Origin: a virus
Taxonomy: Duplodnaviria > Heunggongvirae > Uroviricota > Caudoviricetes
Virus record (IMG/VR): IMGVR_UViG_2529292906_000010
Direction: 5' to 3' (one strand)
DNA length: 47,757 nucleotides
Within the stretch, counting starts at the first letter, position 1; each line of letters begins with the position of its first letter. The notes under the pieces were generated by a model, which saw only the letters and a list, made by a program, of their open reading frames with translations, was not told the origin of the DNA and searched no databases. The position numbers were made by a program, and so were the translations under genes. Shown here in pieces: positions 1,577 through 47,757 of the stretch.

Positions 1577-2131
1577 ATGCAATATGGTTATGCGAGGGTG
1601 TCAACTTTTGACCAGAATTTGGAATTACAACTGGAGGCGCTCAGGAGTTCAGGATGTGACCGGATTTTTGAAGATAAAATATCCGGTGCTAAATCAAAAC
1701 GTCCAGGACTTGATAAGCTACTGAAGGTGTTACGACCGGGCGATACGGTTATTGTCTGGAAGCTGGACCGAATGGGGCGTTCTCTGATTCATCTTGTTGA
1801 TTTACTTAACCATTTTTTATCAAACAACATTGAGTTCATTTCGATTACGGAAGGAATAAAAATTAGCACTTCAATTGGCCGCTTTGCCTACACGATGCTG
1901 AGTGCAGTCGCAGAGATGGAGCGGGAAAATATGATTGAAAGAACGCGTGCAGGATTGGCGGTGGCAAGGGCTAACGGCAGGATAGGAGGACGCCGCTCAA
2001 AGCTGTCACCAGAGCAATGGGAACAGATCGGAAGGCTTATTGCGAATGGTGTTTCACGTAAGCGGATAGCGATTATCTTCGATGTTACTTTATCCACGCT
2101 TTACCGCAGGTTTCCGGCTGGGAATCATTGA
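1577..2131 (+). CDS. site-specific DNA invertase, Hin/Gin/Pin/Cin family serine recombinase
   Basis: 184 aa; N-terminal GYARVSTFDQ catalytic-serine motif; C-terminal HTH; adjacent to crossover site and fibre cassettes. Confidence 0.9.
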   Translation: MQYGYARVSTFDQNLELQLEALRSSGCDRIFEDKISGAKSKRPGLDKLLKVLRPGDTVIVWKLDRMGRSLIHLVDLLNHFLSNNIEFISITEGIKISTSIGRFAYTMLSAVAEMERENMIERTRAGLAVARANGRIGGRRSKLSPEQWEQIGRLIANGVSRKRIAIIFDVTLSTLYRRFPAGNH

Positions 2132-2260
2132 CTGGAGTTAGGCCAGTAGTATGATGCTCGCAAAACGAGATCCAATTTAGATCCTTTTACTGGTGGATTA
2201 TCGTTCGATCAGTGAGAGACTTCGTGCATGACCGAAAGTGTTGTGGTAGAGTTCTCTCAA

Positions 2261-2277
2261 AACCACGTAACGTGGTT
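2261..2277. promoter_or_regulatory. operator-like palindrome AACCAC-N5-GTGGTT upstream of repA
   Basis: AACCACGTAACGTGGTT; same palindrome family as the sites flanking the CI-like repressor gene. Confidence 0.4.
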
Positions 2278-2312
2278 ATGATTGTGGGTGTCTGGTTGGA
2301 AAGTGACCAGAT

Positions 2313-2440
2313 ATGGAAACAAAAAGCCCGCAGATAAATCTGCGGGCTTCTTGCGACATCCACGGAAAACCAACAACTAACCATGGGCGCCTCGACAACT
2401 CCCATTATACGTTGGTTTTCCGTGGACGCAAGAGCGAACA
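2313..2440 (-). ncRNA. candidate antisense control RNA of repA (CopA-like), with minus-strand terminator at 2322-2350
   Basis: Hairpin AGCCCGCAG-N6-CTGCGGGCT followed by a T-run on the minus strand; 15-bp stem 2360-2374/2411-2425 immediately upstream of the RepA start. Confidence 0.35.
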
Positions 2441-2441
2441 T

Positions 2442-3290
2442 ATGGATAGACCAATGCCGTCTCTACGTTCAGCTTACGTTTGTAATTTGTCGCCGGAGTT
2501 CCAGCCTCCAAAGCACCATACGCACAAGCTGCCGCTGGTGTTATCTGATGCTTTACAGCGCATTAATGGGCGTGATCTTACGTGTGAGGTTGCGTTCTAC
2601 GTTAATCAACCGTCAGAGCGGAAGCGCCGGATAAACGAGCATCGTCGTCGGGCGATTAATGCTGTGATCGCTGCGATTTTGCACCATGTAAACATCATTT
2701 CTAAGCGGGTTCTGGCTAGTGCTGAGGCGTTGGCTGATTTTTGCGGCCTGTCTACCGTATCCGAAGCTGGGAACAAGTCTATAACGCGCTGTACAAGGGC
2801 GTTGTCGCAACTGAAAGCGTTAGGTTTTATTGATTATGAACGTCGCTGGGATCGGGTGAATAAACAGTATTGGCCAGCGAAAATAGAGATTCGTGATCAA
2901 CTGCTGGAAACCGTTGGTATTACTGAACAAGCATGGAGACGTGCGGTTAGCCAGAAACTTAATTACTTCAATGCGAAGAATAGCGAACGGCTTAAAAAAG
3001 CGATAACGGAGGCTGATTATAAGCGTATTGTTATTCAGGAGCAGATGGAGAATGTATGGCGCCAGAGGAAGACGGCCAGAGAGATAAAGGCAAAACAGAA
3101 AGCAGCGGAGAGAGCTGCGCGTCTTGTCCGGGAAAAGGGAGAGGCCGAACTTCGTCATCAAATCACTAGAGAGGTTAGCCAGGAATTTGCTGATGGCATG
3201 TATCCAGGTGCTGACCTTGCATATTTACGATCCCTCGTTGAGCAGCGTTATAACAGGCTAAGAAAGACCTGGAAATCACTCCAACATTAA
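2442..3290 (+). CDS. repA: plasmid replication initiator RepA (IncFII RepA1-like)
   Basis: Recalled similarity to R100/R1 RepA1 (SITRCTRALSQLKALGFIDYE vs SITRATRALTFLSELGLITYQ); in-frame ATG at 2313 is an alternative start but overlaps the antisense hairpins. Confidence 0.75.
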   Translation: MDRPMPSLRSAYVCNLSPEFQPPKHHTHKLPLVLSDALQRINGRDLTCEVAFYVNQPSERKRRINEHRRRAINAVIAAILHHVNIISKRVLASAEALADFCGLSTVSEAGNKSITRCTRALSQLKALGFIDYERRWDRVNKQYWPAKIEIRDQLLETVGITEQAWRRAVSQKLNYFNAKNSERLKKAITEADYKRIVIQEQMENVWRQRKTAREIKAKQKAAERAARLVREKGEAELRHQITREVSQEFADGMYPGADLAYLRSLVEQRYNRLRKTWKSLQH

Positions 3291-3299
3291 CCCACCTGA

Positions 3300-3550
3300 A
3301 TGATGAATCCGGTTTTACCGGAGGATTATCTACGTCGCAATAAAATATCTGTTCAAAAAATAGTCTAAATTAATTTTCTCTAAACCTGGACACAGCAAAA
3401 ATATCGCCTTTACAGGCATCGGCTAATAAAGTTATCCACAGTTTTGATATGTATATGCAAATGGTTTTTTATAATAGATGCACTAAACAAATAAATGCAA
3501 AATCACTTTCTTTTATTAAGACTTTCTTTATTTAACTTACGCAGGCTTTG
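3300..3550. other. candidate replication origin (oriR-like) with DnaA box
   Basis: Consensus DnaA box TTATCCACA at 3432-3440 followed by ~100 bp of AT-rich DNA, directly downstream of repA as in IncFII replicons. Confidence 0.4.
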
Positions 3551-3828
3551 CCTGTGAATATGTTCGCCCTTGCAGCGAGCTAAAGCTCGCGCCGGTTCGA
3601 GTCGCTACGCTCAAATATACCTCCTCCGGCACTTGCCGGAGGCATGGAGCAGCCTGATCATCCTTTTCGAAACGGCGCGTTTCGAACTATACAAAATCAA
3701 TTTATATAAGGCCGAAATAAGGCCTACGGCCGGGCTTTGCAGGAGGAAGGGACGGACCTTATCAATAAACGTCGATAAATACGCACACAGTAGCAATCAG
3801 AACGCGACAAAACGTAAGAAACATCCTT

Positions 3829-3894
3829 TTCTATTAGACATAGAAAACTTGTCTTATACGCAATGTAGTAAATTTCTATTGCCACATAGGAAAA
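3829..3894. promoter_or_regulatory. two TTCTAT-N-ATAGAA palindromes upstream of HTH gene
   Basis: TTCTATTAGACATAGAAAA (3829-3847) and TTCTATTGCCACATAGGAAAA (3873-3894). Confidence 0.3.
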
Positions 3895-3921
3895 GATTTC
3901 CTACCATCGTAGATATAATAA

Positions 3922-4221
3922 ATGGAGATGGTTATGGATAAAGATACTGTTTTAAAAATGTTGAATCCGGCTTGTTTAAAAAAAGCGGATGAATGGGAAT
4001 CTCCTACATGTGGAGAAGTTCGGGCAGTCATTGGCCTGACCGGAATGAGCGGCTCGCAGTTGGCCAAAAAACTAGGCTTAAAAGATAGTCGCAATGTTCG
4101 CAACTGGCAGATGTTAAAGGAGTCCACATCCAGATCCAGCATTCCGTATGCAGCCTGGGCGCTGCTGTGTTACTTCGCTGGGTTAGGGTTAATCTTCATT
4201 GATAACAAAACAGATGTTTGA
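3922..4221 (+). CDS. helix-turn-helix DNA-binding protein
   Basis: 99-aa ORF; HTH-like segment GMSGSQLAKKLGLKDSRNVRNWQ; start may be ATG 3934. Confidence 0.5.
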   Translation: MEMVMDKDTVLKMLNPACLKKADEWESPTCGEVRAVIGLTGMSGSQLAKKLGLKDSRNVRNWQMLKESTSRSSIPYAAWALLCYFAGLGLIFIDNKTDV

Positions 4222-4508
4222 AACATGCAAATATGAGGTTTGTTATGGAACTTGTACGCAAAACACGCAAAGAGTTCTTGGACCTGTATCGCATGGGAGC
4301 TTTCACTTGTGTTGTGGCTACCCAGGACGAAGTGACAAAAAGCTGGCGGCTTTTTGCTCTCAATAAAAAAGGGATTGCCGTTTTCATTGAAAAAGCCCGT
4401 GGTGGTATCCGCGAATGGGCGGGATTGAATTATGTGGCTGATTTTTGCGCAGCTATGGGGATTCGTCGCTGGGAAGTCCATATGCCAGGAGTAAAGTCAC
4501 AAAAATAG
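4218..4508 (+). CDS. hypothetical protein
   Basis: 96-aa ORF coupled to upstream gene; true start may be ATG 4245. Confidence 0.4.
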   Translation: MKHANMRFVMELVRKTRKEFLDLYRMGAFTCVVATQDEVTKSWRLFALNKKGIAVFIEKARGGIREWAGLNYVADFCAAMGIRRWEVHMPGVKSQK

Positions 4509-4746
4509 GGCTTTCGTGTCGAAAATGAGGCGAAACTGAAAACGAGATTTCATTAACAAATAAGCAACATAAAAAACAGTGGAAAACGCCCAGGAAAACA
4601 TGATCTTTTGAGCGGATTTTTTAGATCCGACAATGAACGGTGATCCGGTGGTGCCGATAACGTCCATTATGTTAAATGGCCCCGTTTTTCTTGAAATTAT
4701 AACTCACAGGTTATATAGTTAGTGATATAAACTACAGGTTATAGGA

Positions 4747-5100
4747 TTGAGCATGTGGACGGTACTTTTTAGCCAGCGATTTGACGGCTGGCTAAATGAG
4801 CAAGAAGACGCTCTTCAGGAAAAGGTTTTGGCTGATTTGAAAAAGCTACAGGTTTACGGACCTGAGTTACCCAGGCCATATGCCGATACCGTAAAAGGTT
4901 CTCGGTACAAAAATATGAAAGAGCTTCGCGTTCAGTTTTCTGGCCGTCCGATAAGAGCCTTTTATGCGTTCGATCCGATTCGCCGGGCTATCGTTCTTTG
5001 TGCAGGAGACAAAAGTAACGATAAGCGGTTTTATAAAAAACTGGTGCGTATAGCTGAGGATGAGTTTGCAGCACATCTGAACACACTGGAGAGCAAGTAA
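4747..5100 (+). CDS. type II toxin, RelE/ParE superfamily (HigB-like)
   Basis: 117 aa; toxin-first arrangement with stop overlapping the HTH antitoxin start; probable ATG start at 4753. Confidence 0.65.
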   Translation: MSMWTVLFSQRFDGWLNEQEDALQEKVLADLKKLQVYGPELPRPYADTVKGSRYKNMKELRVQFSGRPIRAFYAFDPIRRAIVLCAGDKSNDKRFYKKLVRIAEDEFAAHLNTLESK

Positions 5101-5399
5101 TGAGAACATTAGATGAGGTGATTGCCAGCCGTTCACCGGAAAGCCAGGCGCGAATTAAAGAAATGGCAGATGAGATGATTCTTGAGGTCGGCTTGCAGAT
5201 GATGCGTGAAGAACTCCAGTTATCACAAAAGCAGGTTGCTGAGGCGATGGGTATAAGCCAGCCAGCAGTAACAAAGCTGGAGCAGCGCGGAAATGATTTA
5301 AAGCTGGCGACATTAAAGCGTTACGTTGAAGCTATGGGAGGCAAATTAAGCCTGGATGTTGAGCTTCCCACAGGAAAACGAATAGCGTTTAACATCTGA
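5100..5399 (+). CDS. HTH (XRE-family) antitoxin, HigA-like
   Basis: 99 aa; HTH segment LSQKQVAEAMGISQPAVTKLEQ; translationally coupled to upstream toxin. Confidence 0.65.
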   Translation: MRTLDEVIASRSPESQARIKEMADEMILEVGLQMMREELQLSQKQVAEAMGISQPAVTKLEQRGNDLKLATLKRYVEAMGGKLSLDVELPTGKRIAFNI

Positions 5400-5413
5400 T
5401 CAGAACGAATGAT

Positions 5414-5441
5414 AAGCCCCTGTTGCAAAGGGGCTTTTTTG
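5414..5441 (+). terminator. rho-independent terminator
   Basis: AGCCCCT-N-AGGGGCT stem followed by TTTTTT. Confidence 0.6.
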
Positions 5442-5450
5442 TGCTCATGG

Positions 5451-5562
5451 AATTATATAATTATAGATTTATATAAAAAGTGCTTTACAGGTGGGAAAAT
5501 ATTTCCTAGTGTTATACCCGAAACCGAGCGATACCCGCCCTGGTTAAACCGGAGATAACCCG
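5451..5562 (+). promoter_or_regulatory. conserved promoter-leader element, copy A
   Basis: Near-identical to 14348-14464 and 22011-22122; contains TATAATTATA palindrome, TTTACA (-35-like), GGGAAAA(A/T)ATTTCC, conserved leader and GGAGA RBS. Confidence 0.5.
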
Positions 5563-5943
5563 ATGAGCATGATTAAAATCCGCAAAAACGCTTTCCTTAA
5601 AATTCAAACTATCCTGGCTGGTTCTGTTGGCGTGATTTGCCGTTCTTCTTCAAGCCGCATCGATGACGGCTACGATGATGAGTATCGTGTGTCCTCGTGC
5701 GATGAGGCTTTAACCTGGCTGAAGGAGAATCAGGAACGTGCCCAGGTATATCTGGAAACAGAGAACGGCAATCAGATGCTGCGTATTAGCGGTCGTTATG
5801 GATTTGAAACTACATTCATTGCCTATTTTAATCAGGTTTACTTTGACAAGGAGCTGGCCTGGTACACTGATCGCATGAGCAAAAGCGAGCCAGCTCCGAT
5901 TACACCGCCGAACAATAAACCATTTTTATTCCTCGTTAAGTAA
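5563..5943 (+). CDS. hypothetical protein
   Basis: 126-aa ORF immediately after leader copy A. Confidence 0.5.
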   Translation: MSMIKIRKNAFLKIQTILAGSVGVICRSSSSRIDDGYDDEYRVSSCDEALTWLKENQERAQVYLETENGNQMLRISGRYGFETTFIAYFNQVYFDKELAWYTDRMSKSEPAPITPPNNKPFLFLVK

Positions 5944-5954
5944 ACACAATACGT

Positions 5955-5975
5955 AAAGTGTCATTTTGACACTTT
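5955..5975. promoter_or_regulatory. perfect palindrome AAAGTGTCA-TTT-TGACACTTT upstream of HTH regulator
   Basis: 21-bp palindrome ~30 bp upstream of the 6007 start; half-site repeated at 14295-14309. Confidence 0.35.
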
Positions 5976-6006
5976 GCGAGTGTTAATATTGTGCGAGGAG
6001 GATGCT

Positions 6007-6279
6007 ATGACGGGTTATGAATTGAAATTATGGCGTCGTGGGATGAACTGGACGCAGGAGCGAGCCGCCGAAGAATTTGGGATATCGTTGGCTACATATA
6101 AGCGATATGAGAAGGGGGAGCCGCCGAGGGTCATTGAGATGGCCATTCGCGTTCTGTCATTTGACGATATGGTTAAGGATCTTTCACACCTTGATAAAGA
6201 TGCGATTCTGTTAAGGCTGCAAACCCTTGTATGGGAAAAGGTTAAAGTGTCGTCAGAATTGGAACAAGAGATCAAATGA
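6007..6279 (+). CDS. XRE-family helix-turn-helix regulator
   Basis: HTH segment MNWTQERAAEEFGISLATYKRYEKG; GAGGAGGA RBS before ATG 6007. Confidence 0.6.
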   Translation: MTGYELKLWRRGMNWTQERAAEEFGISLATYKRYEKGEPPRVIEMAIRVLSFDDMVKDLSHLDKDAILLRLQTLVWEKVKVSSELEQEIK

Positions 6280-6325
6280 TCCTTTACGGATCGTTTTATG
6301 GTGGTGTAATGTAAGCGCCAGAAAG

Positions 6326-6354
6326 ACAAAAACCGCCTTGCCGGGCGGTTTTCA
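6326..6354. terminator. bidirectional hairpin terminator
   Basis: ACCGCC-TTGCCG-GGCGGT stem followed by TTTT. Confidence 0.45.
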
Positions 6355-7086
6355 GTCTGAAATTTAAATCTTGCTTGGTAGGCTGGATTTAAAAAGACAC
6401 CTCTTGATTGGGGCGGCTTTCTTGCGTCTAAAGATAATCAAATCTTTTTGCGCCTGCAACCCCTTTTTTACTGGTGCCTGTTTCAGACTCACGCTCGCGT
6501 CGTTGTCTTTGCCACTTCGTTGGGTTCGGTGTTTTTGGACGGAGTGGCGCGCGGGTATGCGTACAAGGGGAAAGTGTGCTGACGCAAGCCAGGAACAGCG
6601 ATCTAAACTAAGTCGAGTCTGAGAAAGGCAGGAGTGCGACAACTCGCCTGTGCTCAATGAGCAGAAGAAGGTATATCAGACGACCAATGGCATGATTGTG
6701 GGCCACAGGGCGCACACGGCGGCGAAGCATTGGAAACGATGTGGAGCTATCTGGTGGCATGAGTTCCGGTACTCGATCTCGAGCTTTTTTGATGCTTTTG
6801 AGAAGGGGCCGGAACTCCGGTAAAGGGCACCCTGTATGGGGGGAGGGGGGTTGTGTCTGAAGGGTGGCTATCGGTTATGGTGGAATTATGATGCGTAGAA
6901 AAGCAAGTTTGCTGCAAGCTATTGGGTCCATTATTTCTTTGTTTCCGGCAGTTGATCATTTTCGTCATATGGCGACACGTTCGAGTATGGGCTTGGTGCG
7001 TGACGCTGACGCTATTCGAAAGGATTTTCAGAAAGTCTCTGGTGTTGATAAGAGAGAAAAGAGTAAGGGGCCGTAGCCCCTTGTAG

Positions 7087-8229
7087 TTATGGTCTGCTTT
7101 TCTGTGCCAGCTTATCAGCACATGTTTTTATCAGATCCTGTAGTGTCCTGGCTGGCAGGTTTGCATCCAGTACGCTGAGTATGCTGTTGTGATCTGCTTG
7201 GTCGACTACTTTGCCTGTCGGTGGTAGTAGCTTGAGCTGAGGATTCAGGTTTTCGTCAAAACTGATAAGTGCTCTGGCGTTTCTGAGCAGATCAAGAAGT
7301 AAGGCTGATATCACATCATCTTTAGTCATTGTTGGTAGATTTAGTGCCGCTTTAGTTTTCTCCGTCGCCTTGTCAAACTCTTTGATTAGTGTCTTGCGGT
7401 AGTTTGGTTCCGTTAATAGCCGATGATGTTCTGTTGCCGTTCGGATAATCTTTGTTTCCTGATACAGTCGGTTGTATAGCATTCGCTCGTATTCTGCCTT
7501 TAACACGCTGCTGATAGCGTTAAAGGCTTCAATGTAGGCCAGCTTGATATCCTTCACGCCTGGACCGTCGATACTTTCCATGAGCAAGGTAAATCCGTCT
7601 TTTGTCATGCGATAGATTGTTATTTCGCGGTCGCTTCCTTCCAGCGGTCGTTGTTCTTTAAAGAAGTGACGCGCCGCAGCCGTGCGAGGAATGCGTAACG
7701 CATCGATGGCCATAACGATGGAATTGTTTGTGGTGCTGAATGCTTGGGCAACATCGGCTGAGGTTGTGAGTGGCTCGTTGTTGCACACCTTAACGTAATA
7801 CATTGGTTTAGCGTTGAGCGTATCGACAACCTCACGAGCATTGTTTGGTGAGACGGTTACGGTCGCGGCCGTTTGCGCGTTCTGGTTGAAGTAGCAGTCT
7901 TCCAGCCGTTCGAATACATCCCATGCCTGATCGGTTTCGAGCATTTTAGCGTGACGTGCAGCCCCGCGTTCGGTCCAGAGGATGAGCTTTCTAACGTTAT
8001 TCGCGATGGTTTGAAAATCTCTTAAAGAGATTTTCAAACTTTGGAGATCTGTACCTTTTACAACTATGAAATGTTTTCCTTCTGTAAACCGGGACTTATT
8101 ACGGTGGTGATTTCTGTGAAGACATTCGACGCTACAGCCATATAGTTTGGCAAGCAGCTCCGTGGTGATAACGGGGAGCTGCTTATGCAGGATAGGCTGT
8201 AGGGTGTTAACGGTCGGAAGCGTTTTCAT
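7087..8229 (-). CDS. phage antirepressor (ORF6N/Rha-like N-terminus)
   Basis: 380 aa; N-terminal region resembles ORF6N/Rha antirepressor domains as recalled. Confidence 0.65.
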   Translation of the reverse strand: MKTLPTVNTLQPILHKQLPVITTELLAKLYGCSVECLHRNHHRNKSRFTEGKHFIVVKGTDLQSLKISLRDFQTIANNVRKLILWTERGAARHAKMLETDQAWDVFERLEDCYFNQNAQTAATVTVSPNNAREVVDTLNAKPMYYVKVCNNEPLTTSADVAQAFSTTNNSIVMAIDALRIPRTAAARHFFKEQRPLEGSDREITIYRMTKDGFTLLMESIDGPGVKDIKLAYIEAFNAISSVLKAEYERMLYNRLYQETKIIRTATEHHRLLTEPNYRKTLIKEFDKATEKTKAALNLPTMTKDDVISALLLDLLRNARALISFDENLNPQLKLLPPTGKVVDQADHNSILSVLDANLPARTLQDLIKTCADKLAQKSRP

Positions 8230-8417
8230 TTTGCACCTCCCATAACTACTTTGGTTACGAGGGAGATTTTTGCGACAGAAACAGCGTTATCGTTGCTGGC
8301 GATGCGCATAGCTTCGCGCTCGATGATTTCAGCCAGGCGGAATTTATCGGCGTATGAGGCTTTCTTGAGAAGGATCTTTACGAGGTTGACGTAATAGTCA
8401 TGGGGTAGGTTTGTCAT
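8226..8417 (-). CDS. small protein overlapping antirepressor start (Icd-like position)
   Basis: 63-aa ORF whose stop overlaps the antirepressor start; AAGGGA RBS. Confidence 0.4.
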   Translation of the reverse strand: MTNLPHDYYVNLVKILLKKASYADKFRLAEIIEREAMRIASNDNAVSVAKISLVTKVVMGGAK

Positions 8418-8582
8418 TGTGATGATTCCCTTAAAGGTTAAGGATACTCACCACCGTCAGGTTCCAATCATTGGGTGGTGAGACGTGCAGGGTTGGAACT
8501 ACCGGACACAATGACGAACCGGCGAGTCTTACGACTCCCCCGCACGCCCCACCATAATTTGGGTGTAGCAGTGCTTTACGCA

Positions 8583-8690
8583 TAAAAAAACCGCTAACGC
8601 GGTATGCGCCATTGTGTCTACGGGGTTCCAATCCCGACCGTAGATTTTGCTACGGCTCGGAAAGTGTCCACCAATGGCGCATTCATGTCA
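8583..8690 (-). ncRNA. candidate structured small RNA upstream of antirepressor operon
   Basis: Minus-strand hairpins (GCGCCATTG/CAATGGCGC; TCTACGG/CCGTAGA) ending in CCGCGTTAGCGG + T7 terminator at 8583-8605; no ORF. Confidence 0.25.
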
Positions 8691-9173
8691 ATACGGCGGG
8701 ATTTTAACAGAGACAACCACATAGCGTGGGTTTATTGGTAGGCAGAAACAAAAAAACCGCCCTATTGAGGACGGTTCTTTCGTGCTGATCGGATTCGCGG
8801 TCCTTTCAGCATTACGTTGTTGTATAAACAACCACGCAAGCACAAGCAGCAAGTTAATTTTACCCAAAAGGTAATAATAGTCCACTATTATGCTTCAAAA
8901 AATTGTGGTTCTTGTTGTGCCTGCAAACTCACAGATTGTGGGTAGGTTACTGATTTTGTGAAAATAAACGAGTTTTTTCGTTTAATTTCTTTCCTATTAC
9001 TAATCTTAAAATAATCGTAAAATACCTGTGGACCTTCCCGCCGATTCGCACCCGGGCACCGACTTTAGGGGAGGATTCTCCGTTGCCGTACATGCAAGCA
9101 CAAGCAGCCGTGCTTGCTCTCGCGTTGTTTTCGTCGGTGGGGATGCCGTGAAACGGCCTGTAAGGGCCATACA

Positions 9174-9296
9174 ATGAAAAAATACTGTATGTGTATTTTT
9201 ATCGTTGTTACTGGAGCTTTGTTTACGCCACATGGGGAGGGTTGGAAGATTACTGATAACGCTCTGAATGTGACGATAAACATTAGCAGCAAGTAG
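9174..9296 (+). CDS. small hydrophobic protein (40 aa)
   Basis: MKKYCMCIFIVVTGALFT... with AAGGG RBS; followed by terminator at 9302-9325. Confidence 0.3.
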   Translation: MKKYCMCIFIVVTGALFTPHGEGWKITDNALNVTINISSK

Positions 9297-9301
9297 CGAT
9301 T

Positions 9302-9325
9302 AGGCCCCTTCGGGGGCCTTTTTTA
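9302..9325. terminator. hairpin terminator
   Basis: AGGCCCC-TTCG-GGGGCCT followed by TTTTTT. Confidence 0.6.
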
Positions 9326-9334
9326 TGGTTGAAT

Positions 9335-9517
9335 TTAAACGCTGGAGCGCATTAAGCCTTTCAGAACTGCTTCACGTACCCATTCTGGTCTGGTGGATAG
9401 CAGGGCAAATAAGCGGCCAGCTTGCAGCCGTTTGAGGTCGGTTAGACGAGTTTTCAGTAACCGTGTATATTGTTGTTCGGACATAACAAATTCCCCTTGT
9501 TGTGTCGCGACGGCCAA
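9335..9517 (-). CDS. hypothetical protein
   Basis: 60-aa ORF downstream of partition genes. Confidence 0.35.
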   Translation of the reverse strand: MAVATQQGEFVMSEQQYTRLLKTRLTDLKRLQAGRLFALLSTRPEWVREAVLKGLMRSSV

Positions 9518-9546
9518 CAGTTGGCGCTGGAGGCCGTCACCTTCTC

Positions 9547-9795
9547 TTACTTCTGGTTGTATTGAGCCTTGAGTAACTCAAAAGATTTTGTCAGCACTTC
9601 TTTCAATGACATATCCATTGAGCTGGCGAACGTTTTGTACTCGCGTTTAAATTCAGGGTCGACGTTAAACGCCATTTGTGCCCCACCTGATTTGGTTCTG
9701 GCTGGCGTTTCAGTCGGGTCGAAAACCTGCGGTTGTTCGATCGATGGCGGTACGCCTTTGCTGTTCTTCTTTGGTGGTTTTGATGGTGCGGCCAT
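9547..9795 (-). CDS. ParG-like centromere-binding protein (probable ribbon-helix-helix)
   Basis: 82 aa; Pro/Lys-rich N-terminal tail then short structured C-terminus; directly downstream of parA; AGAGAGGA RBS. Confidence 0.5.
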   Translation of the reverse strand: MAAPSKPPKKNSKGVPPSIEQPQVFDPTETPARTKSGGAQMAFNVDPEFKREYKTFASSMDMSLKEVLTKSFELLKAQYNQK

Positions 9796-9807
9796 GTGTA
9801 TCCTCTC

Positions 9808-9840
9808 TTATATAAATCTATAAAACTATAATTATATATT
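9808..9840. repeat. TATAATTATA palindrome site D (between parA and parG-like gene)
   Basis: Core at 9827-9836; reverse complement carries ATAGTTTTATAGATTTATATAA flank as in leader copies. Confidence 0.5.
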
Positions 9841-10507
9841 ACGCGGCAGTAGTCAGAGCCTCAAGCTGGTTGATAATCCCCTGAATAACGTCGTCTGCTT
9901 TTTTGCGTGGCGCAACGTATGAGCACTCAATGAGGCTTAAGCCCTTATCCTGAGCTTTGCTCAGAGCTGGCTTGTGGGGAATGTACTTATCGACAACAAA
10001 GTATGGCGTATTAGCCAGGTACTCTTGGGCTTCAATATAGTCAGCTTCGTTTTCAGCCGCGCCGGAAAACACCATGCAAATTTTCTTGATTGGTACACCC
10101 TTTTTAACGATGCCGTGAGCTGTGTTAACGGTGGTTTCCAGGTCATCGGTAGAGAATCTGGTTGGCAAAATAACCATATCCAGAAATTCAGAGAGCTTCG
10201 GTACTGATTCAGATGCGTAGGCACCGCCATCAACGATAACCAGGTCGTATACTTCTGATTCGATGATTTTCTGGACTTGTGATGGCGTGCCGCACGGCTG
10301 CGCCGCGATTGCAGGTTCGATATTGTTGGCCATTCTGCGTTGTACCCAACGCGTTACCGTTCCGTTAAGCACATCCATATCGATCAGGCATACATTCCAG
10401 CCAGCCTTTGCATAAGCAACTGCTAAAGCACGAGCAATGGTTGATTTGGTTACGCCGCCTTTTCCGTTGAAAATACCTACAGATATAGTCATTTGTCGAG
10501 ACTCCAT
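9839..10507 (-). CDS. parA: partition ATPase ParA (ParA/MinD family, small type Ib)
   Basis: 222 aa; deviant Walker A GKGGVTKST near N-terminus. Confidence 0.85.
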   Translation of the reverse strand: MESRQMTISVGIFNGKGGVTKSTIARALAVAYAKAGWNVCLIDMDVLNGTVTRWVQRRMANNIEPAIAAQPCGTPSQVQKIIESEVYDLVIVDGGAYASESVPKLSEFLDMVILPTRFSTDDLETTVNTAHGIVKKGVPIKKICMVFSGAAENEADYIEAQEYLANTPYFVVDKYIPHKPALSKAQDKGLSLIECSYVAPRKKADDVIQGIINQLEALTTAA

Positions 10508-10512
10508 GCGTT

Positions 10513-10618
10513 TGATTATATAATTCTATAAATCTATATTTATAGAATGAGGTAAGCATAACCAACTTTTTGGCGGATGAAAAGTGTTTTATATAATTAT
10601 ATAAATCTATAATCATAT
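10513..10618. promoter_or_regulatory. par promoter/centromere-like region with two TATAATTATA-family sites
   Basis: TATAATTCTA at 10518-10527 and TATAATTATA at 10591-10600, directly upstream of parA. Confidence 0.4.
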
Positions 10619-10638
10619 AAGCGGGCGTTAGCCCGCTT
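10618..10638 (-). terminator. hairpin terminator
   Basis: GCGGGC-GTTA-GCCCGC stem after stop of gene 10643-11017. Confidence 0.45.
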
Positions 10639-10642
10639 TCAG

Positions 10643-11017
10643 TCAGAGGTCAGCTATCGTTGATATCAGTTGATTTGCTAGCTGTCGCTGTTTACGTGAG
10701 AGGGTTAGAGCAGCTTCTGAGCGGTCGCTAAGAGGGGTGTTTTCATCGAGAATCATGAGGCATACAGAAATAATAGCCCTGTTATATGCCATCAATGGCT
10801 GGCACAGCTTCGATATCGCTGGCACATCGTATTGTAAGGCCGTTTTGAGGCAGACTTTTTGTTCTGATGCCAGATGAAGGATAGATTCTATCCAGTCGAT
10901 ATCTTTCTCATTATCAATGAGTTGGCATAACATACACTCAATCGCTATGTTCAACGCTTGGATTTCGATTCCAGCAGTGATCAGAGTTTCGTTTTTATTG
11001 GCTGTATGTAATTCCAT
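10643..11017 (-). CDS. hypothetical protein
   Basis: 124-aa ORF downstream of the repressor gene. Confidence 0.5.
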   Translation of the reverse strand: MELHTANKNETLITAGIEIQALNIAIECMLCQLIDNEKDIDWIESILHLASEQKVCLKTALQYDVPAISKLCQPLMAYNRAIISVCLMILDENTPLSDRSEAALTLSRKQRQLANQLISTIADL

Positions 11018-11050: not shown

Positions 11051-11069
11051 AAACCACAAAGCGTGGTTT
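11051..11069. promoter_or_regulatory. operator-like palindrome AAACCAC-N5-GTGGTTT (may also act as terminator)
   Basis: AAACCACAAAGCGTGGTTT followed by T-run. Confidence 0.35.
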
Positions 11070-11109: not shown

Positions 11110-11772
11110 TCATAACCAGTTGACAACACTAACTACGCGGCCAAGAACTTTATAACGCTTAAATTCCTCGTTATTCAGATGCTTAGTGTTCATTTCAGCA
11201 TCCCTTTCGGTTGACAGCATAACAGCATTGTCACCCGGTATGACTCTACAGTGCCTCAAAACAACCAGGCCATTTCTGTCTTCAAGGGCATAGATCCCCT
11301 CATGAACCTCTGTATCGTCTGTATTAATCAGGACTTGGGAGCCAGGGGATATTGTTGGTGACATTAGCTTTAGCTCATCGTTGCTCTGGAGAACAGACAG
11401 AGACGATGGGTTGATGTTCTTGCTTCGTAGAATCTCCTGTTCTATCGCCAGCACTGGCTTTTCTCCGGCGTGCGATGCTATGTCATTTTTTATAGCTACA
11501 AGCCCAGGAATAACAGGTGCGTTAGTATTCTGGGGTGGGAACGGGTTATCTGTTAAGCACGCGATATAAGGCGCTGATGCTTTCAGGGCGTGCGCGATTT
11601 TCTTGATGGCAGGTATAGATGGTTGTCTTAATCCGGCCTCATAGTTCTGCAAGGTGCTTAAGCCTATTCCAGTGACTTGCTGGAGATCTCCGGCAGTCAT
11701 GCCGGATTGTTTCCGTAGAGTCTGAATGCGCAGACCTATTTCTTTCTTGATGTTCTCGTCGTTGCTTTTCAT
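11110..11772 (-). CDS. CI-type repressor (N-terminal HTH, C-terminal S24/LexA-like domain)
   Basis: 220 aa; XRE HTH (LQQVTGIGLSTLQNYEAG); C-terminus has MSP and KVLGRVV motifs at the positions of the LexA-type Ser/Lys dyad; divergent from Cro-like gene. Confidence 0.75.
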   Translation of the reverse strand: MKSNDENIKKEIGLRIQTLRKQSGMTAGDLQQVTGIGLSTLQNYEAGLRQPSIPAIKKIAHALKASAPYIACLTDNPFPPQNTNAPVIPGLVAIKNDIASHAGEKPVLAIEQEILRSKNINPSSLSVLQSNDELKLMSPTISPGSQVLINTDDTEVHEGIYALEDRNGLVVLRHCRVIPGDNAVMLSTERDAEMNTKHLNNEEFKRYKVLGRVVSVVNWL

Positions 11773-11807: not shown

Positions 11808-11929
11808 TTACCACATTTAGTGGTTTTCACACGGTAAGACGAGAGGTAGACCACAAATAGAAGGTTATTTTTGTTTCCCCATTGAAAAACTCACGATTTG
11901 TGGTTTTAATACCACATATCGTGGTTTAA
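11808..11929. promoter_or_regulatory. immunity operator/promoter region (OR-like) between repressor and Cro-like gene
   Basis: Palindromes ACCACATTTAGTGGT (11810-11824) and ACCACATATCGTGGT (11911-11925) plus half-sites at 11850 and 11891; TTGAAA -35-like at 11882. Confidence 0.5.
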
Positions 11930-14347: not shown

Positions 14348-14464
14348 ATCTATAAATATATAATTATAGATTTATATAAAAAGTGCTTTACAGGTGGGAA
14401 AAAATTTCCTAAGGTTATACCCAAAACCGAGCGATACCCGCCCTGGTTAAACCGGAGAAATCTG
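14348..14464 (+). promoter_or_regulatory. conserved promoter-leader element, copy B
   Basis: Near-identical to copies A and C; TATAATTATA core at 14359-14368. Confidence 0.5.
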
Positions 14465-15532
14465 ATGAATAAACAAGTAATTATTTCTGACTGGATCAAC
14501 AACCCTAACAGCCTGTTGAGCACTGATACTGGCTATAGATTACGTCATGTTAATGGCCGTATGGTCAAAAGCGATGAGCACGAAACCTTTTTCGTTGTTG
14601 AAGACGATGGACGTCTTTATGAGGATGGTCACTCTTATGAATCCCAAACAGGTTGTATCCCTGCAGAGTTGGTAGACGTAACAGAAAAGCTGCGCAAAGC
14701 ATGGCTTGAACAGCAGCAGCGCGGAGATGATTACGTAAATACCTATCAGGAACGCCAGAACGCGCGTCTTGCCCGATATATTGCTCGTGCAGAAAAAGCC
14801 AGAAAAGAAGGTGCGGTGGCGCATAAGCGAGCGCATGAACTGTTGGATGTGATCCCGTTAGGCCAGCCGATTTTAGTTGACCATTATAGCGCGAAAGGCC
14901 ATCGCCGCCGTTTGTCTAAAGCTGATGCGTTATTCAGAAAATCGTTTGTTGAGTGTGAAAGCAGAGCATCGTACTACGAAAGCAAAGCCGCAGGTGTCGG
15001 CCGTAATGGAGTTTCGTCTGATGATCCTGATGCGCTATTTAAGTTGCTTCGTAAGCTGCAAGGCTGCATGAAGTCACACATCAAAATGAAGGCCGCAAAT
15101 AAGGCTATTCGCAAATACAAAAAAGACCAATTACAGCAGCTTTCCGCATTAATTGACCTTGAGTTTACTGAAAGCGAAGCCAAAGGGTTACTCGCCGGAG
15201 ATTTCTGTGGGCACATTGGCTTCCCTTCATACTCACTGAGTAACAATAATGCCGAAATCAAACGACTACAGAGCCGTATTAAGGAGCTTGAATCGGTCAA
15301 GTCTGTAACAGGAGCACAGCGCGAAGAATACGACGGCTTTTCTATGGAGATAGATCCAGAGGATAACCGTATCCTGTTTTATTTCCCTGGCAAACCAGAG
15401 GCAAACATTCGTTCGCTGCTTAAATCACGCGCCTTTAAGTGGAGTCCAACCCGTAATGCATGGGTTCGCAAGATTACTCCAAACGCCCTGGCTGATGCCC
15501 GATATCTGAAAGAATCGCTATTGAAAGCCTGA
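14465..15532 (+). CDS. hypothetical protein (356 aa)
   Basis: Starts at ATG 14465 after GGAGA RBS; the longer ORF from 14315 would read through the leader. Confidence 0.6.
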   Translation: MNKQVIISDWINNPNSLLSTDTGYRLRHVNGRMVKSDEHETFFVVEDDGRLYEDGHSYESQTGCIPAELVDVTEKLRKAWLEQQQRGDDYVNTYQERQNARLARYIARAEKARKEGAVAHKRAHELLDVIPLGQPILVDHYSAKGHRRRLSKADALFRKSFVECESRASYYESKAAGVGRNGVSSDDPDALFKLLRKLQGCMKSHIKMKAANKAIRKYKKDQLQQLSALIDLEFTESEAKGLLAGDFCGHIGFPSYSLSNNNAEIKRLQSRIKELESVKSVTGAQREEYDGFSMEIDPEDNRILFYFPGKPEANIRSLLKSRAFKWSPTRNAWVRKITPNALADARYLKESLLKA

Positions 15533-21039: not shown

Positions 21040-21115
21040 GGCCCCTTAGCTTAGTGGTTAGAGCAGGCGACTCATAATCGCACGGTCATCGGTTCAAATC
21101 CGGTAGGGGCCACCA
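21040..21115 (+). tRNA. tRNA with CAU anticodon (Met or Ile2/lysidine type)
   Basis: 76-nt cloverleaf: acceptor GGCCCCT/AGGGGCC, anticodon loop CTCATAA, T-loop GGTTCAAATCC, 3' CCA; recalled as close to E. coli tRNA-Ile2. Confidence 0.8.
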
Positions 21116-21423: not shown

Positions 21424-22011
21424 ATGGAGGCAATTGCATTGTTTAATCTGATTTATGCAGATCCCCCCTGGGAATACAAAGATAAGTGTAAGGATGGGAA
21501 TCGTGGAGCTGGTTTTAAGTATCCAACGATGAAAGCTGAGGATATTGCTCGTATTCCTGTCTGGCAGCTTGCTAATCCTGAATCGTGTTTGTTGGCCATG
21601 TGGTGGGTTCCGACTCAGCCAGAAGAAGCGTTGCTGGTGGTGAAAGCATGGGGATTCAGGCTTATGACCATGAAGGGCTTCACATGGAACAAATGTGGTA
21701 GCCGACAACCAGATAAGCTGGTGATGGGGATGGGGCATATGACTCGTGCAAACAGTGAAGATTGCTTGTTTGCGGTAAAAGGCAAATTGCCGACCCGCCT
21801 TGATGCGGGGATCATTCAGTCGTTTACATCGCCTCGTCTGGAGCATTCTCGGAAGCCTGATGTGGTTCGTGACAAGCTGGTAAGGCTGTTAGGTGATGTT
21901 CCTCGTATTGAGCTGTTTGCTCGCGGTGATTTACCTGATGGTTGGCATGGCTGGGGCAACCAGTGCAATGGAGGTATCCAGTTGCATGATGCTCTCTGGC
22001 AAGTGGCATAG
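21424..22011 (+). CDS. orphan N6-adenine DNA methyltransferase, MT-A70 family
   Basis: DPPW motif (IYADPPWEY) near N-terminus; no adjacent restriction endonuclease. Confidence 0.75.
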   Translation: MEAIALFNLIYADPPWEYKDKCKDGNRGAGFKYPTMKAEDIARIPVWQLANPESCLLAMWWVPTQPEEALLVVKAWGFRLMTMKGFTWNKCGSRQPDKLVMGMGHMTRANSEDCLFAVKGKLPTRLDAGIIQSFTSPRLEHSRKPDVVRDKLVRLLGDVPRIELFARGDLPDGWHGWGNQCNGGIQLHDALWQVA

Positions 22012-22122
22012 AATTATATAATTATAGATTTATATAAAAAGTGCTTTACAGGTGGGAAAAAATTTCCTAAGGTTATACCCGAAACCGAGCGATACCCGCC
22101 CTGGTTAAACCGGAGAAATCTG
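22011..22122 (+). promoter_or_regulatory. conserved promoter-leader element, copy C
   Basis: Near-identical to copies A and B; core at 22017-22026. Confidence 0.5.
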
Positions 22123-22419
22123 ATGAAAGTACAAGACCGTGAAGTAGTAAAAAACCTCCTGCAATACCTGACCTCAAAAAACCTGACGGGCAGCGTTGAG
22201 TTCCGTGAAGCGTTAAAACATTTCAACGTCACTACGGTTTATCGTTGGGAAAACAAACATTCTGAAAGACCGTATGTGGTGGATGTTTTTGCGCCTGATA
22301 TTGAGTGCGGTTTTGAGCGTCATTCGTTCAAGGAGAAACATTCTGCTGATTTTTTTGTGAGGTTGTATGTGCGGCAGGAGATGATGAGTGATGCGTATTT
22401 CCTTCAAACGTGCGACTGA
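22123..22419 (+). CDS. hypothetical protein
   Basis: 98-aa ORF after leader copy C. Confidence 0.5.
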   Translation: MKVQDREVVKNLLQYLTSKNLTGSVEFREALKHFNVTTVYRWENKHSERPYVVDVFAPDIECGFERHSFKEKHSADFFVRLYVRQEMMSDAYFLQTCD

Positions 22420-45701: not shown

Positions 45702-47735
45702 GTGAGTAAATTATTATTTACGATGACTGACGCCGGGCGTCAGGAGTTGGTTAATGCCAACAAAACAGGAACAAATAAAGTTGAGATTGTTTCTGTTGGT
45801 TTAGGTGGTAGATATTATGTCACGTCAACCTCACAAACAAATATAACAAACGAAATAAAACGACTTACCACAATAGGTGGCAAAGTTGTTTCCCCTGATA
45901 CAATTCATGTAACGGCGAAGGATGATAGTAAAGATGAGTATGTTGTCCATACAATAGGATTGTATACAAATAAGGGAACGTTGTTTGCTGTATACTCGCA
46001 AGAACAAGCAATAATAAATAAAGCATCATCTACTATTGCTTTAATATCAAGTGACATAGCAATCAAGACTCTTGATACTAAAAATATTATATTTGGTGAT
46101 GTTGAGTTTATTAATCCTCCCGCGACCGAAACTGTTGTTGGGGTTGCAAGATTTGCTAATGAACAAGAAATTGATGCAGGTACAGATGATTCCCTTGCTG
46201 TTTCAGCAAAGCGGCTTAAGCAAGCCATTGTGAAACATGAGCAATCACGTAATCATCCTGATGCAACTTTAACCTCAAAAGGCTTTGTTCAACTTAGCAG
46301 CGCCACCAATAGCACGTCTGAAACGCTTGCTGCGACGCCTAAGGCTGTTAAGGCAGCATATGACCTGGCTAACGCTAAATACACCGCACAGGACGCTACC
46401 ACTGCGCGGAAAGGGATAGTTCAGCTCAGTAGCGCCACCAACAGCACGTCTGAAACGCTTGCGGCAACGCCAAAGGCTGTTAAGGCGGCATATGACCTGG
46501 CTAATGGCAAATACACCGCACAGGACGCTACCACTGCGCGGAAAGGGATAGTTCAGCTCAGTAGCGCCACCAACAGCACATCTGAAACGCTGGCTGCGAC
46601 GCCAAAAGCTGTTAAGGCGGTAATGGATGAAACGAACAAGAAAGCGCCCTTAAACAGTCCTGCGCTGACCGGAACGCCAACAACGCCAACTGCGCCAAAA
46701 GGGACTAATAATACTCAGATCGCAAGCACGGCTTATGTGATGGCCGCGATTGCCGCACTTGTAGACTCGTCGCCTGACGCACTGAATACGTTGAACGAGT
46801 TAGCGGCGGCGCTGGGAAACGACCCGAATTTTGCGACCACCATGACTAAAGCGCTTGCGGGTAAGCAACCGAAAGATGCCACTCTGACGGCGCTGGCCGG
46901 GCTTGCTACTGCGGCAGACAAGTTTCCGTATTTTACGGGGAATGATGTCGCCAGCCTGGCAACCCTGACAAAAGTCGGGCGGGATATTCTTGCGAAATCG
47001 ACCGTTGCCGCTGTTATCGAATACCTCGGTTTACGAGAACTCGGCACAAGCGGGGAAAAAATACCGTTACTCAGTACGGCGAATACCTGGACCAATCGAC
47101 AAACATTCAGTGGTGGCCTTTCTGGGGAACTGTCCGGCAATGCCGCTACTGCAACAAAGCTGAAAACAGCACGAAAAATTGCTGGAGTTGGTTTTGATGG
47201 TTCTAGCGATATTTCAATTAGTGCCAAAAATGTCAATGCATTTGCACTCCGACAAACAGGTAATACTGTTAATGGTGATACATCCGTTGGATGGAATTGG
47301 GATAGTGGTGCATATAACGCCATAATTGGTGGTGCAACTGCATTAATTCTTCACTTTAATATAAATGCTGGTAGCTGTCCTGCCGTACAATTCCGTGTGA
47401 ATTATAAAAATGGTGGCATTTCCTACAGGTCGGCTCGTGATGGTTATGGGTTTGAATTAGGTTGGTCAGATTTCTATACCACGACACGAAAACCTTCAGC
47501 AGGAGATGTTGGTGCATATACACAGGCAGAATGTAACTCAAGGTTTATTACAGGTATTCGCCTTGGCGGTCTGTCATCTGTTCAGACATGGAATGGTCCC
47601 GGCTGGTCTGACAGGTCAGGTTATGTCGTTACGGGTTCAGTTAACGGGAACCGTGATGAATTAATTGATACAACGCAGGCAAGGCCAATTCAGTATTGCA
47701 TTAATGGAAGGTGGTATAACGCGGGGAGTATTTAA
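45702..47735 (+). CDS. tail fibre protein (constant N-terminal part plus invertible C-terminal cassette from ~47040)
   Basis: 677 aa; three tandem ~44-aa fibre repeats; C-terminal 232 aa identical to the inverted cassette 791-1486. Confidence 0.9.
   Translation: MSKLLFTMTDAGRQELVNANKTGTNKVEIVSVGLGGRYYVTSTSQTNITNEIKRLTTIGGKVVSPDTIHVTAKDDSKDEYVVHTIGLYTNKGTLFAVYSQEQAIINKASSTIALISSDIAIKTLDTKNIIFGDVEFINPPATETVVGVARFANEQEIDAGTDDSLAVSAKRLKQAIVKHEQSRNHPDATLTSKGFVQLSSATNSTSETLAATPKAVKAAYDLANAKYTAQDATTARKGIVQLSSATNSTSETLAATPKAVKAAYDLANGKYTAQDATTARKGIVQLSSATNSTSETLAATPKAVKAVMDETNKKAPLNSPALTGTPTTPTAPKGTNNTQIASTAYVMAAIAALVDSSPDALNTLNELAAALGNDPNFATTMTKALAGKQPKDATLTALAGLATAADKFPYFTGNDVASLATLTKVGRDILAKSTVAAVIEYLGLRELGTSGEKIPLLSTANTWTNRQTFSGGLSGELSGNAATATKLKTARKIAGVGFDGSSDISISAKNVNAFALRQTGNTVNGDTSVGWNWDSGAYNAIIGGATALILHFNINAGSCPAVQFRVNYKNGGISYRSARDGYGFELGWSDFYTTTRKPSAGDVGAYTQAECNSRFITGIRLGGLSSVQTWNGPGWSDRSGYVVTGSVNGNRDELIDTTQARPIQYCINGRWYNAGSI
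46281..46620 (+). repeat. tandem 132-bp repeats within tail fibre gene (~2.6 copies)
   Basis: GGGATAGTTCAGCTCAGTAGCGCCACCAACAGCAC... recurs at 46413 and 46545. Confidence 0.7.
47014..47039. other. DNA invertase crossover site (gix/hix-like) inside tail fibre gene
   Basis: Reverse complement TTCTCGTAAACCGAGGTATTCGATAA; inverted-repeat identity with 769-1500 begins at 47026. Confidence 0.6.
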
Positions 47736-47737
47736 TT

Positions 47738-47757
47738 ATGATGCACTTAAAAAACAT
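47738..47757 (+). CDS. tail fibre assembly protein, first 6 codons (3' end outside window)
   Basis: ATGATGCACTTAAAAAAC identical to the start of the inverted Tfa at 788. Confidence 0.5.

Follow-up and report, generated by a model that had tools for sequence, protein, structure and literature searches.

Are the plasmid-type genes carried by the virus record IMGVR_UViG_2529292906_000010 (Duplodnaviria; Heunggongvirae; Uroviricota; Caudoviricetes) the means by which a phage persists outside the chromosome, or do they sit in an integrated prophage or in a remnant that no longer forms virions? An earlier annotation made from the sequence alone (the sequence-only reading) placed a plasmid-maintenance backbone at positions 2132-11017 of the stretch analysed here, which is 47,757 nt in full and is referred to as the window, and proposed extrachromosomal lysogeny. 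Comparison with public records, rather than read depth, supports that proposal, because the backbone lies on circular plasmids, the virion module of the relatives is plasmid-borne at all places but one, and the ends of the window hold no host flank. We conclude with high confidence that the window is a near-complete 48-kb genome of a temperate myovirus kept as a low-copy circular plasmid, that is, a phage-plasmid. The case is real and largely ordinary; near-identical copies are already in public databases, including one from Escherichia coli ATCC 25922.

The whole window was colinear with approximately 60-70 circular E. coli plasmids of 47-51 kb, at 97-99% identity. For the backbone interval 2132-11017, identity was 97-98% to dozens of circular plasmids of 47-50 kb, most from E. 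coli. In PLSDB, 47 circular plasmids spanned at least 80% of the interval, and a share of at least that size was present in 60 of 5,426 complete E. coli genomes. The terminase-to-sheath and capsid-to-sheath modules were found in 72 of the same 5,426 genomes (about 1.3%), and the virion module occupied 83 places in complete E. coli genomes, 82 on plasmids and one on a chromosome. For the capsid-sheath query, the 60 records among the matches listed were 31-57 kb long, except for one of 94 kb with two copies. The element also occurs in records of Salmonella, Citrobacter and Klebsiella. As a separate observation, NZ_CP032086.1, from an assembly of ATCC 25922, measures 94,204 bp and holds two copies of the element, as a plasmid dimer or an assembly artefact; neither a Xer/cer dimer-resolution site nor Cre-lox was found in the window.

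The ATCC 25922 plasmid, a circle of 48,488 bp, is colinear with the whole window at 98% identity, and its PGAP annotation includes a full set of contractile-tailed virion, packaging and lysis genes (terminase, portal, protease, capsid, sheath, tape measure, baseplate, tail fibre, holins and endolysin). Also annotated are repA, a ParA-family gene, a RelE/ParE toxin and a 'recombinase family protein'. The window therefore combines, by colinearity with this plasmid, the gene set of a complete phage with RepA and ParA on the same molecule, and its relatives are autonomous circular replicons. The same backbone was found in three Yersinia phages deposited as phage isolates, with which the window is colinear at 97% identity. 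From end to end, the interval 2132-11017 was 96.9% identical to vB_YpM_44 and vB_YpM_41; for vB_YpM_39 the figure was 96.8%, across 98% of the interval. All three carry the RepA, HigBA and ParA/ParG backbone, and their GenBank records list isolation on Y. pestis EV76; a literature search found no paper describing them.

The structure of the window ends is consistent with a circular molecule lacking host junctions. Read on the opposite strand, the last 744 bases (47014-47757) are identical to 769-1512. This perfect inverted repeat runs exactly as far as the central GA in two 26-bp sites of gix/cix-like type, one at 1487-1512 (TTCTCGTAAACCGAGGTTTTTGAGAA, read as TTCTCGTAAACC-GA-GGTTTTTGAGAA) and the partner site at 47015-47040. 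On account of these boundaries, we rejected the reading as a true long repeat. Since the boundaries fall at gix-like sites beside a serine invertase, the contig breaks inside the invertible tail-fibre segment, which was assembled in both orientations, and this explains why the contig did not close. Both ends lie within the phage's own invertible segment, leaving no room for host flanks. The sequence-only reading had also seen no integrase and only an internal tRNA, and both statements stand: no integrase was present in the PGAP annotation of the colinear ATCC 25922 plasmid or among the window-specific open reading frames (ORFs), and the single tRNA in the window is a tRNA-Met at 21040-21115. 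The sole recombinase is the Gin/Hin-type invertase, which serves tail-fibre switching and is not an integrase.

Within the interval 2132-11017, every element that had been listed was found at or near its assigned place, but the label of plasmid-maintenance backbone covers only part of the interval, as about one third is phage lysis-lysogeny control and small genes. A P1-type immunity module, a ryfA/timP-like type I toxin locus and operator-like palindromes, none of which had been mentioned before, are also present (Table 1).

Table 1. Features in and beside the interval 2132-11017, with coordinates in the window.
Feature	Coordinates	Strand	Basis or remark
Gin/Hin/Cin-type serine invertase	1577..2131	+	Pfam Resolvase 2.7e-44 and HTH_7; adjoins gix-like site
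Candidate repA promoter TTGACT-16-TATGAT	2128..2155	+	10/12 consensus positions; consensus match only
Operator-like palindrome ACCAC-N5-GTGGT in repA leader	2262..2276		exact copy
Candidate antisense control RNA gene (long hairpin and terminator hairpin)	2315..2435	-	fold, compensatory changes
repA, replication initiator	2442..3290 (conserved ATG 2454)	+	Pfam PF02387, NCBIfam NF040977
DnaA box TTATCCACA	3432..3440	+	sole exact copy in window
AT-rich candidate unwinding region, three ATGCA(A/C) repeats	3441..3541		21-30% GC
GC-rich hairpin cluster (four or five) 3' of origin	3542..3735		inverted repeats
Two overlapping small ORFs (99 aa, weak helix-turn-helix; 96 aa)	3922..4508	+	weak TIGR02612 match; PHROG families labelled unknown function
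HigB-like toxin (RelE/ParE superfamily)	4747..5100	+	Pfam Gp49 6.5e-23; homologue annotated higB2 in Yersinia phages
HigA-like helix-turn-helix antitoxin	5100..5399	+	Pfam HTH_3 3.9e-10; overlaps toxin stop codon by one base
127-nt promoter-leader repeat headed by 8-bp ParG-type units	5445..5574	+	one of three
Antirepressor-like gene (ORF6N and Rha domains)	7087..8229	-	Pfam ORF6N 2.7e-17, Phage_pRha 3.9e-12
Small ORF in icd position, 63 aa	8226..8417	-	start codon covered by C4 target
P1-type immI RNAs: C4 antisense RNA 8471-8559, isrK-like leader 8584-8656	8471..8656	-	Rfam
ryfA/timP-like type I toxin locus	9028..9324	+	Rfam RF00126 142 bits, gathering score 80
ParG-like centromere-binding protein, 82 aa (basic disordered tail and ribbon-helix-helix)	9547..9795	-	AlphaFold2 model, fold matches
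8-bp unit array, parA-parG spacer	9808..9839		relatives carry array in same position
Small ParA ATPase (probable start 10492)	9839..10507	-	Pfam CbiA/ParA/MipZ
parA promoter region between two arrays of 8-bp units (ATAKAWTT), candidate centromere and operator	10516..10620		repeat layout
124-aa ORF between repressor gene and parA	10643..11017	-	no Pfam match; phrog_7632 (labelled unknown function)
CI-like repressor (helix-turn-helix and degenerate S24-like C-terminus), just beyond 11017	11110..11772	-	HTH_3 4.6e-11, Peptidase_S24 E = 0.12

The partition genes had been described as a ParA/ParG-like type Ib cassette, a description that holds for the ATPase and the gene order but is qualified for the partner. 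ParA is 217-222 aa long, carries the deviant Walker A motif KGGVTKST and lacks an N-terminal DNA-binding domain, as expected of type Ib; it falls below the cut-off of NCBIfam ParA_partition and weakly matches ParF (4dzz). The 82-aa product of the downstream gene has no sequence match in Pfam (including ParG, PF09274) or the PDB (including ParG). Its AlphaFold2 model shows a disordered basic tail, an extended segment and two helices (47-59 and 64-80) at pLDDT >90, and nearly all of the top 45 fold matches were ribbon-helix-helix proteins, with ParG (1p94) at rank 6, but every E-value was at least 1, which tells against a firm assignment. An exhaustive search recovered about 45 cluster representatives of similar size at 32-48% identity, and a profile search 505 proteins; Pfam RHH_10 was weakly matched by 14 of 43 family members.

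Gene order and the layout of short repeats were conserved at greater distances. In all four distant relatives (a Halomonas plasmid, Pseudomonas helleri and two metagenome contig sets), a ParA of 213-215 aa is followed, 13-45 nt downstream, by a gene of the 82-aa type. These systems have 3-4 tandem 8-bp units just 5' of the parA -35 element and inverted units that lie between the -10 element and the ribosome site of parA; three of the four have a further three units ahead of the parG ribosome site. The unit itself varies by system (CGTTATTN, TTTCGTTA or TTAAAKAA in the relatives, ATAKAWTT in the window), and this change of sequence at fixed positions is the best evidence that the arrays are binding sites of the ParG-like protein. 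ParA and the 82-aa, predicted ribbon-helix-helix protein would segregate the plasmid, with the latter binding the 8-bp arrays around the parA promoter and in the parA-parG spacer; arrays occupy three fixed positions, and their role as centromere and operator is predicted. The cassette resembles TP228 ParF-ParG-parH and pSM19035 delta-omega in its small Walker ParA, its partner of about 80 aa with a flexible basic tail and predicted ribbon-helix-helix, and short-repeat arrays around the promoter as candidate operator and centromere, but differs from both in that the 8-bp units also occur in the parA-parG spacer and at no fewer than five other phage promoters.

The gene content upstream of parA also recurs in part. 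A small ORF stands at the position of the 124-aa ORF in loci L015 (Pseudomonas helleri) and L019 (metagenome), both of which have the same order of CI-like gene, small ORF, parA and ribbon-helix-helix gene, and the CI-like gene of L019 carries a Peptidase_S24 domain. It may be that the repressor-par operon recurs as a module in other phage-plasmids.

Units of the ParG type are not confined to the par cassette. The 15-mer TATAGATTTATATAA, which spans two such units, had 18 matches at up to two mismatches against 0.13 expected, and outside par these cluster at 5445, 14348, 15557, 20863 and 22006 (also 39915). A 127-nt unit is present in three copies (5448-5574, 14351-14477 and 22009-22135; 83-95% identical), each with an 8-bp array, -35/-10-like elements, a conserved leader and a ribosome site, and each taking in the start codon of a different gene; outside the family it was found only in the three Yersinia phages. 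The ATCC 25922 plasmid and L008, a diverged relative, show the same pattern of dispersed arrays, and the arrays may be dispersed centromeres or regulatory sites. N15, a linear plasmid with type Ia SopAB partition, has sop centromeres dispersed near phage promoters, and the window is similar in having putative partition-protein sites scattered near phage promoters, binding being predicted here. Alternatively, the AT-rich arrays outside par could be generic UP elements or the sites of another regulator, a proposal to which we give serious weight and which falls only somewhat short of an even call: the dispersed arrays directly precede a -35 element, the location of UP elements and activator sites, and the 6-kb loci of the distant relatives show arrays only at the par cassette. 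Against it, the enrichment of TATAGATTTATATAA is sequence-specific, the par and dispersed copies are identical, and the dispersed sites are conserved even in the diverged L008.

The replication initiator had been read as an IncFII-type RepA. The family assignment stands (Pfam IncFII_repA at 1.3e-43 for the 325-aa ORF 2313-3290; NCBIfam NF040977 at 231.5 bits, cut-off 70), but the protein is only distantly IncFII-like, as it fails the canonical incFII equivalog TIGR03474 (78.6 bits, cut-off 446.9) and aligns with R100 RepA over only 97 residues (68-164) at 40% identity. Closely related RepA proteins occur on plasmids of E. albertii, E. fergusonii and Klebsiella aerogenes (99-100% identity) and in Salmonella (85%), and the nearest RepA outside the family in the plasmid database, at about 37% identity, is on 43.6-kb plasmids of Enterobacter, Klebsiella and Citrobacter. 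A search of one genome per species returned no relatives of RepA.

The annotated 325-aa ORF is too long, and comparison of lineages places the true start at 2442 or 2454, because the ATG at 2313 is missing from the diverged relatives L008 and L009 and because a 5-nt insertion in L006 breaks the upstream part of the frame while leaving its RepA 100% identical. The first 43 codons of the long ORF contain a terminator hairpin, an AAGAG motif precedes position 2442 by 7 nt, and the ATG at 2454 is kept in all lineages. Upstream, L008 and L009 retain the -10 element of the candidate repA promoter. Just 3' of that promoter, two GATC sites form the arrangement GATCC-N6-GATCC (2169-2184); L008 and L009 keep both sites around a variable spacer, a possible hint of Dam/SeqA control.

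A 'hairpin-rich antisense-RNA-like leader' had also been proposed, and here the structure was found as described while membership in the known family was not. The predicted fold of the minus strand at 2312-2440 (-69.5 kcal/mol; z = -9.65; none of 200 shuffles was equally stable) consists of a long hairpin and a GC-rich terminator hairpin followed by UUUUUGUUU, and both hairpins are kept in five sequence variants, with compensatory double changes at three base pairs. The strand that carries the U-tract, and the placement of the element beside repA, lead us to infer an antisense RNA: most likely, a countertranscript of approximately 110-120 nt, ended by the terminator, would base-pair with the leader of repA and hold down RepA synthesis in the manner of CopA in R1 and R100. 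Several results speak against this. The element had no Rfam CopA (RF00042) match even at E up to 10, and the same search found CopA in R100 at 106 bits, 85 nt upstream of repA; neither a consensus scan nor inspection by eye revealed a sigma-70 promoter for the proposed RNA; and copB and a Tap-like leader peptide are absent, the 310 nt between the invertase stop and repA holding no such ORF. A conserved upstream frame was considered as a coupled Tap-like peptide and rejected, since it runs for 83 codons without a stop near the repA start.

The hairpins might instead be elements of the sense leader, either attenuating transcription or hiding the ribosome site in a fold, with no antisense RNA being made. 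Besides the lack of a CopA match and of a minus-strand promoter, this is favoured by a stem position in L008 that forms a U-G wobble on the sense strand and an A-C mismatch on the antisense strand. We nevertheless regard it as rather unlikely, given that the uninterrupted terminator U-tract TTTTTGTTT lies on the minus strand, where the plus strand offers only TTCTTG, and that the location relative to repA mirrors that of CopA in R100.

The origin region is closer to the IncFII pattern, and the DnaA box with an AT-rich stretch downstream was confirmed. The box, the only perfect one in the window, is separated from the repA stop by 142 nt (176 nt in R100) and is directly followed by sequence of 21% GC (3440-3519); it is kept in L009 and has one mismatch in L008, and the AT-rich region is strongly conserved in both. 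The stems of the GC-rich hairpins beyond it are maintained by compensatory changes in L008 and L009, and by analogy with R100, where box, AT-rich region and GC-rich hairpins follow one another in this order and the hairpins occupy the corresponding place, those of the window are possibly a priming site. RepA would open this origin just downstream of its own gene. As no helicase, primase or other initiator is annotated, RepA and oriR, which form the one replicon that can be recognised in the genome, may be used for lytic replication as well. Compared with IncFII plasmids R1 and R100 (copB-copA-tap-repA-oriR), the window therefore shares a PF02387 initiator, a structured opposite-strand element just 5' of repA and a single DnaA box, AT-rich region and GC-rich hairpins 3' of it, but differs in its diverged RepA, in lacking copB, a recognisable tap and a CopA match, and in having within the repA leader an operator-like palindrome common to the phage repressor region.

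The immunity genes around this palindrome's other copies are of phage type. The C4 RNA scored 77.8 bits against RF01695 (gathering score 45) and the isrK-like leader 67.7 bits against RF01394 (gathering score 50). A C4 loop, GUCAUUGUG, is complementary to CACAAUGAC at the ATG of the small ORF, and the loop GUUCCAA is complementary to UUGGAAC just upstream, so that C4 loops face the translation start of the ORF preceding the antirepressor, as in P1-type immI. Judged from these complementarities, the arrangement of C4, small ORF and antirepressor is that of P1/P7 immI logic; the antirepressor operon would counter the CI-like repressor and would itself be held in check by the C4 RNA. No LexA box was found near the antirepressor and repressor genes or in any regulatory region, the sole match lying inside a structural gene. 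At 8733-8744, between the immI promoter region and the ryfA-like locus, the ATCC 25922 plasmid and the Yersinia phages hold approximately 0.8 kb of extra DNA; in the ATCC 25922 plasmid this includes a gene for a 190-aa helix-turn-helix regulator that is missing from the window.

Eight matches to the palindrome ACCAC-N5-GTGGT were counted against 0.75 expected. In addition to the copy in the repA leader, exact copies are present at 11053-11067, 11810-11824 and 11911-11925, and a copy with one mismatch at 8716-8730. Those at 11810 and 11911 fall between the divergently oriented repressor and early genes, and that at 8716 lies upstream of the immI operon. The family conserves their positions, even in L008 with its 64%-identical repressor, and both L008 and L009 retain the half-sites around differing spacers. 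We read the palindromes as presumed repressor operators, through which the CI-like repressor would maintain lysogeny; the copy at 11053 could instead be a terminator hairpin.

Taken together, these sites raise the possibility that plasmid maintenance and phage regulation are wired together. In such a circuit, the ParG-like protein would also bind the arrays 5' of the -35 element of at least five phage promoters, as dispersed centromeres or as a global regulator, and the CI-like operator in the repA leader would throttle RepA and oriR during lysogeny and free them for lytic replication. This proposal, drawn from site positions, is tentative, and as a whole we would not expect it to hold.

Two toxin-antitoxin loci would favour retention of the element. 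The toxin-antitoxin pair reported earlier was recovered as a HigBA-like module, in which a Gp49/HigB-like toxin of RelE/ParE fold comes first and overlaps a helix-turn-helix antitoxin. The ryfA/timP-like locus encodes a 40-aa ORF (9174-9296) with a hydrophobic N-terminus, and the sequence at 8833-8850 matches 9091-9108 in 17 of its 18 nt; an RNA made divergently from the minus strand (within 8748-8850) would therefore pair with the toxin leader, making a TimR-like antisense RNA possible. A divergent, complementary small RNA beside the toxin is the arrangement described for timP/TimR (PMC7667032). The window matches the chromosomal ryfA loci of Salmonella and E. coli in its Rfam score, small hydrophobic ORF and 18-nt complementarity, but its locus lies on a phage-plasmid beside the par cassette, and both toxin and small RNA are predicted. 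Cells losing the element would be penalised by the HigBA-like module and probably also by the type I toxin.

Several observations weigh against the phage-plasmid reading. One of the 83 virion-module places is chromosomal, and the evidence for virion formation rests on database deposits. The window ends have no direct overlap and about 1.4 kb of the invertible segment is missing. Moreover, compared with the ATCC 25922 plasmid, single-base deletions split the portal (31826) and tape-measure (39100) ORFs, which raises the possibility of a defective copy. A plasmid-only remnant that replicates and partitions but forms no virions would explain the two split genes, yet we consider it improbable. Both frame breaks and most other differences from the ATCC 25922 plasmid are a base lost from a homopolymer run (T7 versus T8, A5 versus A6); single-base homopolymer deletions were also found at 6784, 6844, 19083, 19116, 19229 and 22349, and similar deletions fall in non-coding DNA, the usual signature of sequencing error. 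Furthermore, both genes are intact in all listed relatives. The deletions are thus most likely sequencing errors. An ordinary integrated prophage with its integrase and attachment sites beyond the contig, to which the non-overlapping ends and the single chromosomal place might point, is scarcely credible, because the window covers the whole 48.5-kb plasmid circle save part of the invertible segment in which both ends lie, an integrase is present in no relative, and the other 82 places are plasmid-borne.

As a phage-plasmid, the element is built in the style of P1 from other modules, namely a distant IncFII-like replicon, a type Ib par cassette, HigBA, P1-type immI and a CI-like repressor. P1 is about twice the size of the 48-kb element and has type Ia ParA-ParB-parS partition and a C1 repressor. 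The window shares with P1 and P7 a contractile tail, a circular plasmid state, an immI-type C4 RNA with small ORF and antirepressor, an addiction module, and an invertible tail-fibre segment with Cin/Gin-type invertase and crossover site. It is unlike P1 in being half the size, in its IncFII-Pfam initiator with no iteron array found near the origin, in its type Ib partition, in the lack of a detected Cre-lox or Xer site, and in its CI-like helix-turn-helix repressor.

The phage-plasmid kind is well known and near-identical sequences are public, but the family itself is under-described. Ten phage-plasmid types have been used for typing, and the sole E. coli myovirus types among them, P1_1 and P1_2, are 72-125 kb (PMC12977533); the 48-kb family is not one of the ten. 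No paper describing the family as a phage-plasmid was found in the literature, and a 2026 paper labels a Salmonella relative a 'mosaic prophage' (PMC13552960). PHROGs holds all backbone proteins of the element as 'unknown function'. Such gaps matter given that phage-plasmids carry genes both ways, as phages and as plasmids, that automated annotation often misfiles them, and that this family is present in the quality-control strain ATCC 25922. The parts list allows such elements to be recognised, and offers a compact model for a possible coupling of a phage repressor with plasmid control circuits.

Among the remaining small genes, models of defence systems run on the small unassigned ORFs identified nothing besides the toxin-antitoxin pair, and no Rfam-type RNA families were found in 5400-7100. 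In the tail-fibre gene at 46278-46673, three tandem repeats of 132 nt are 65-89% identical.

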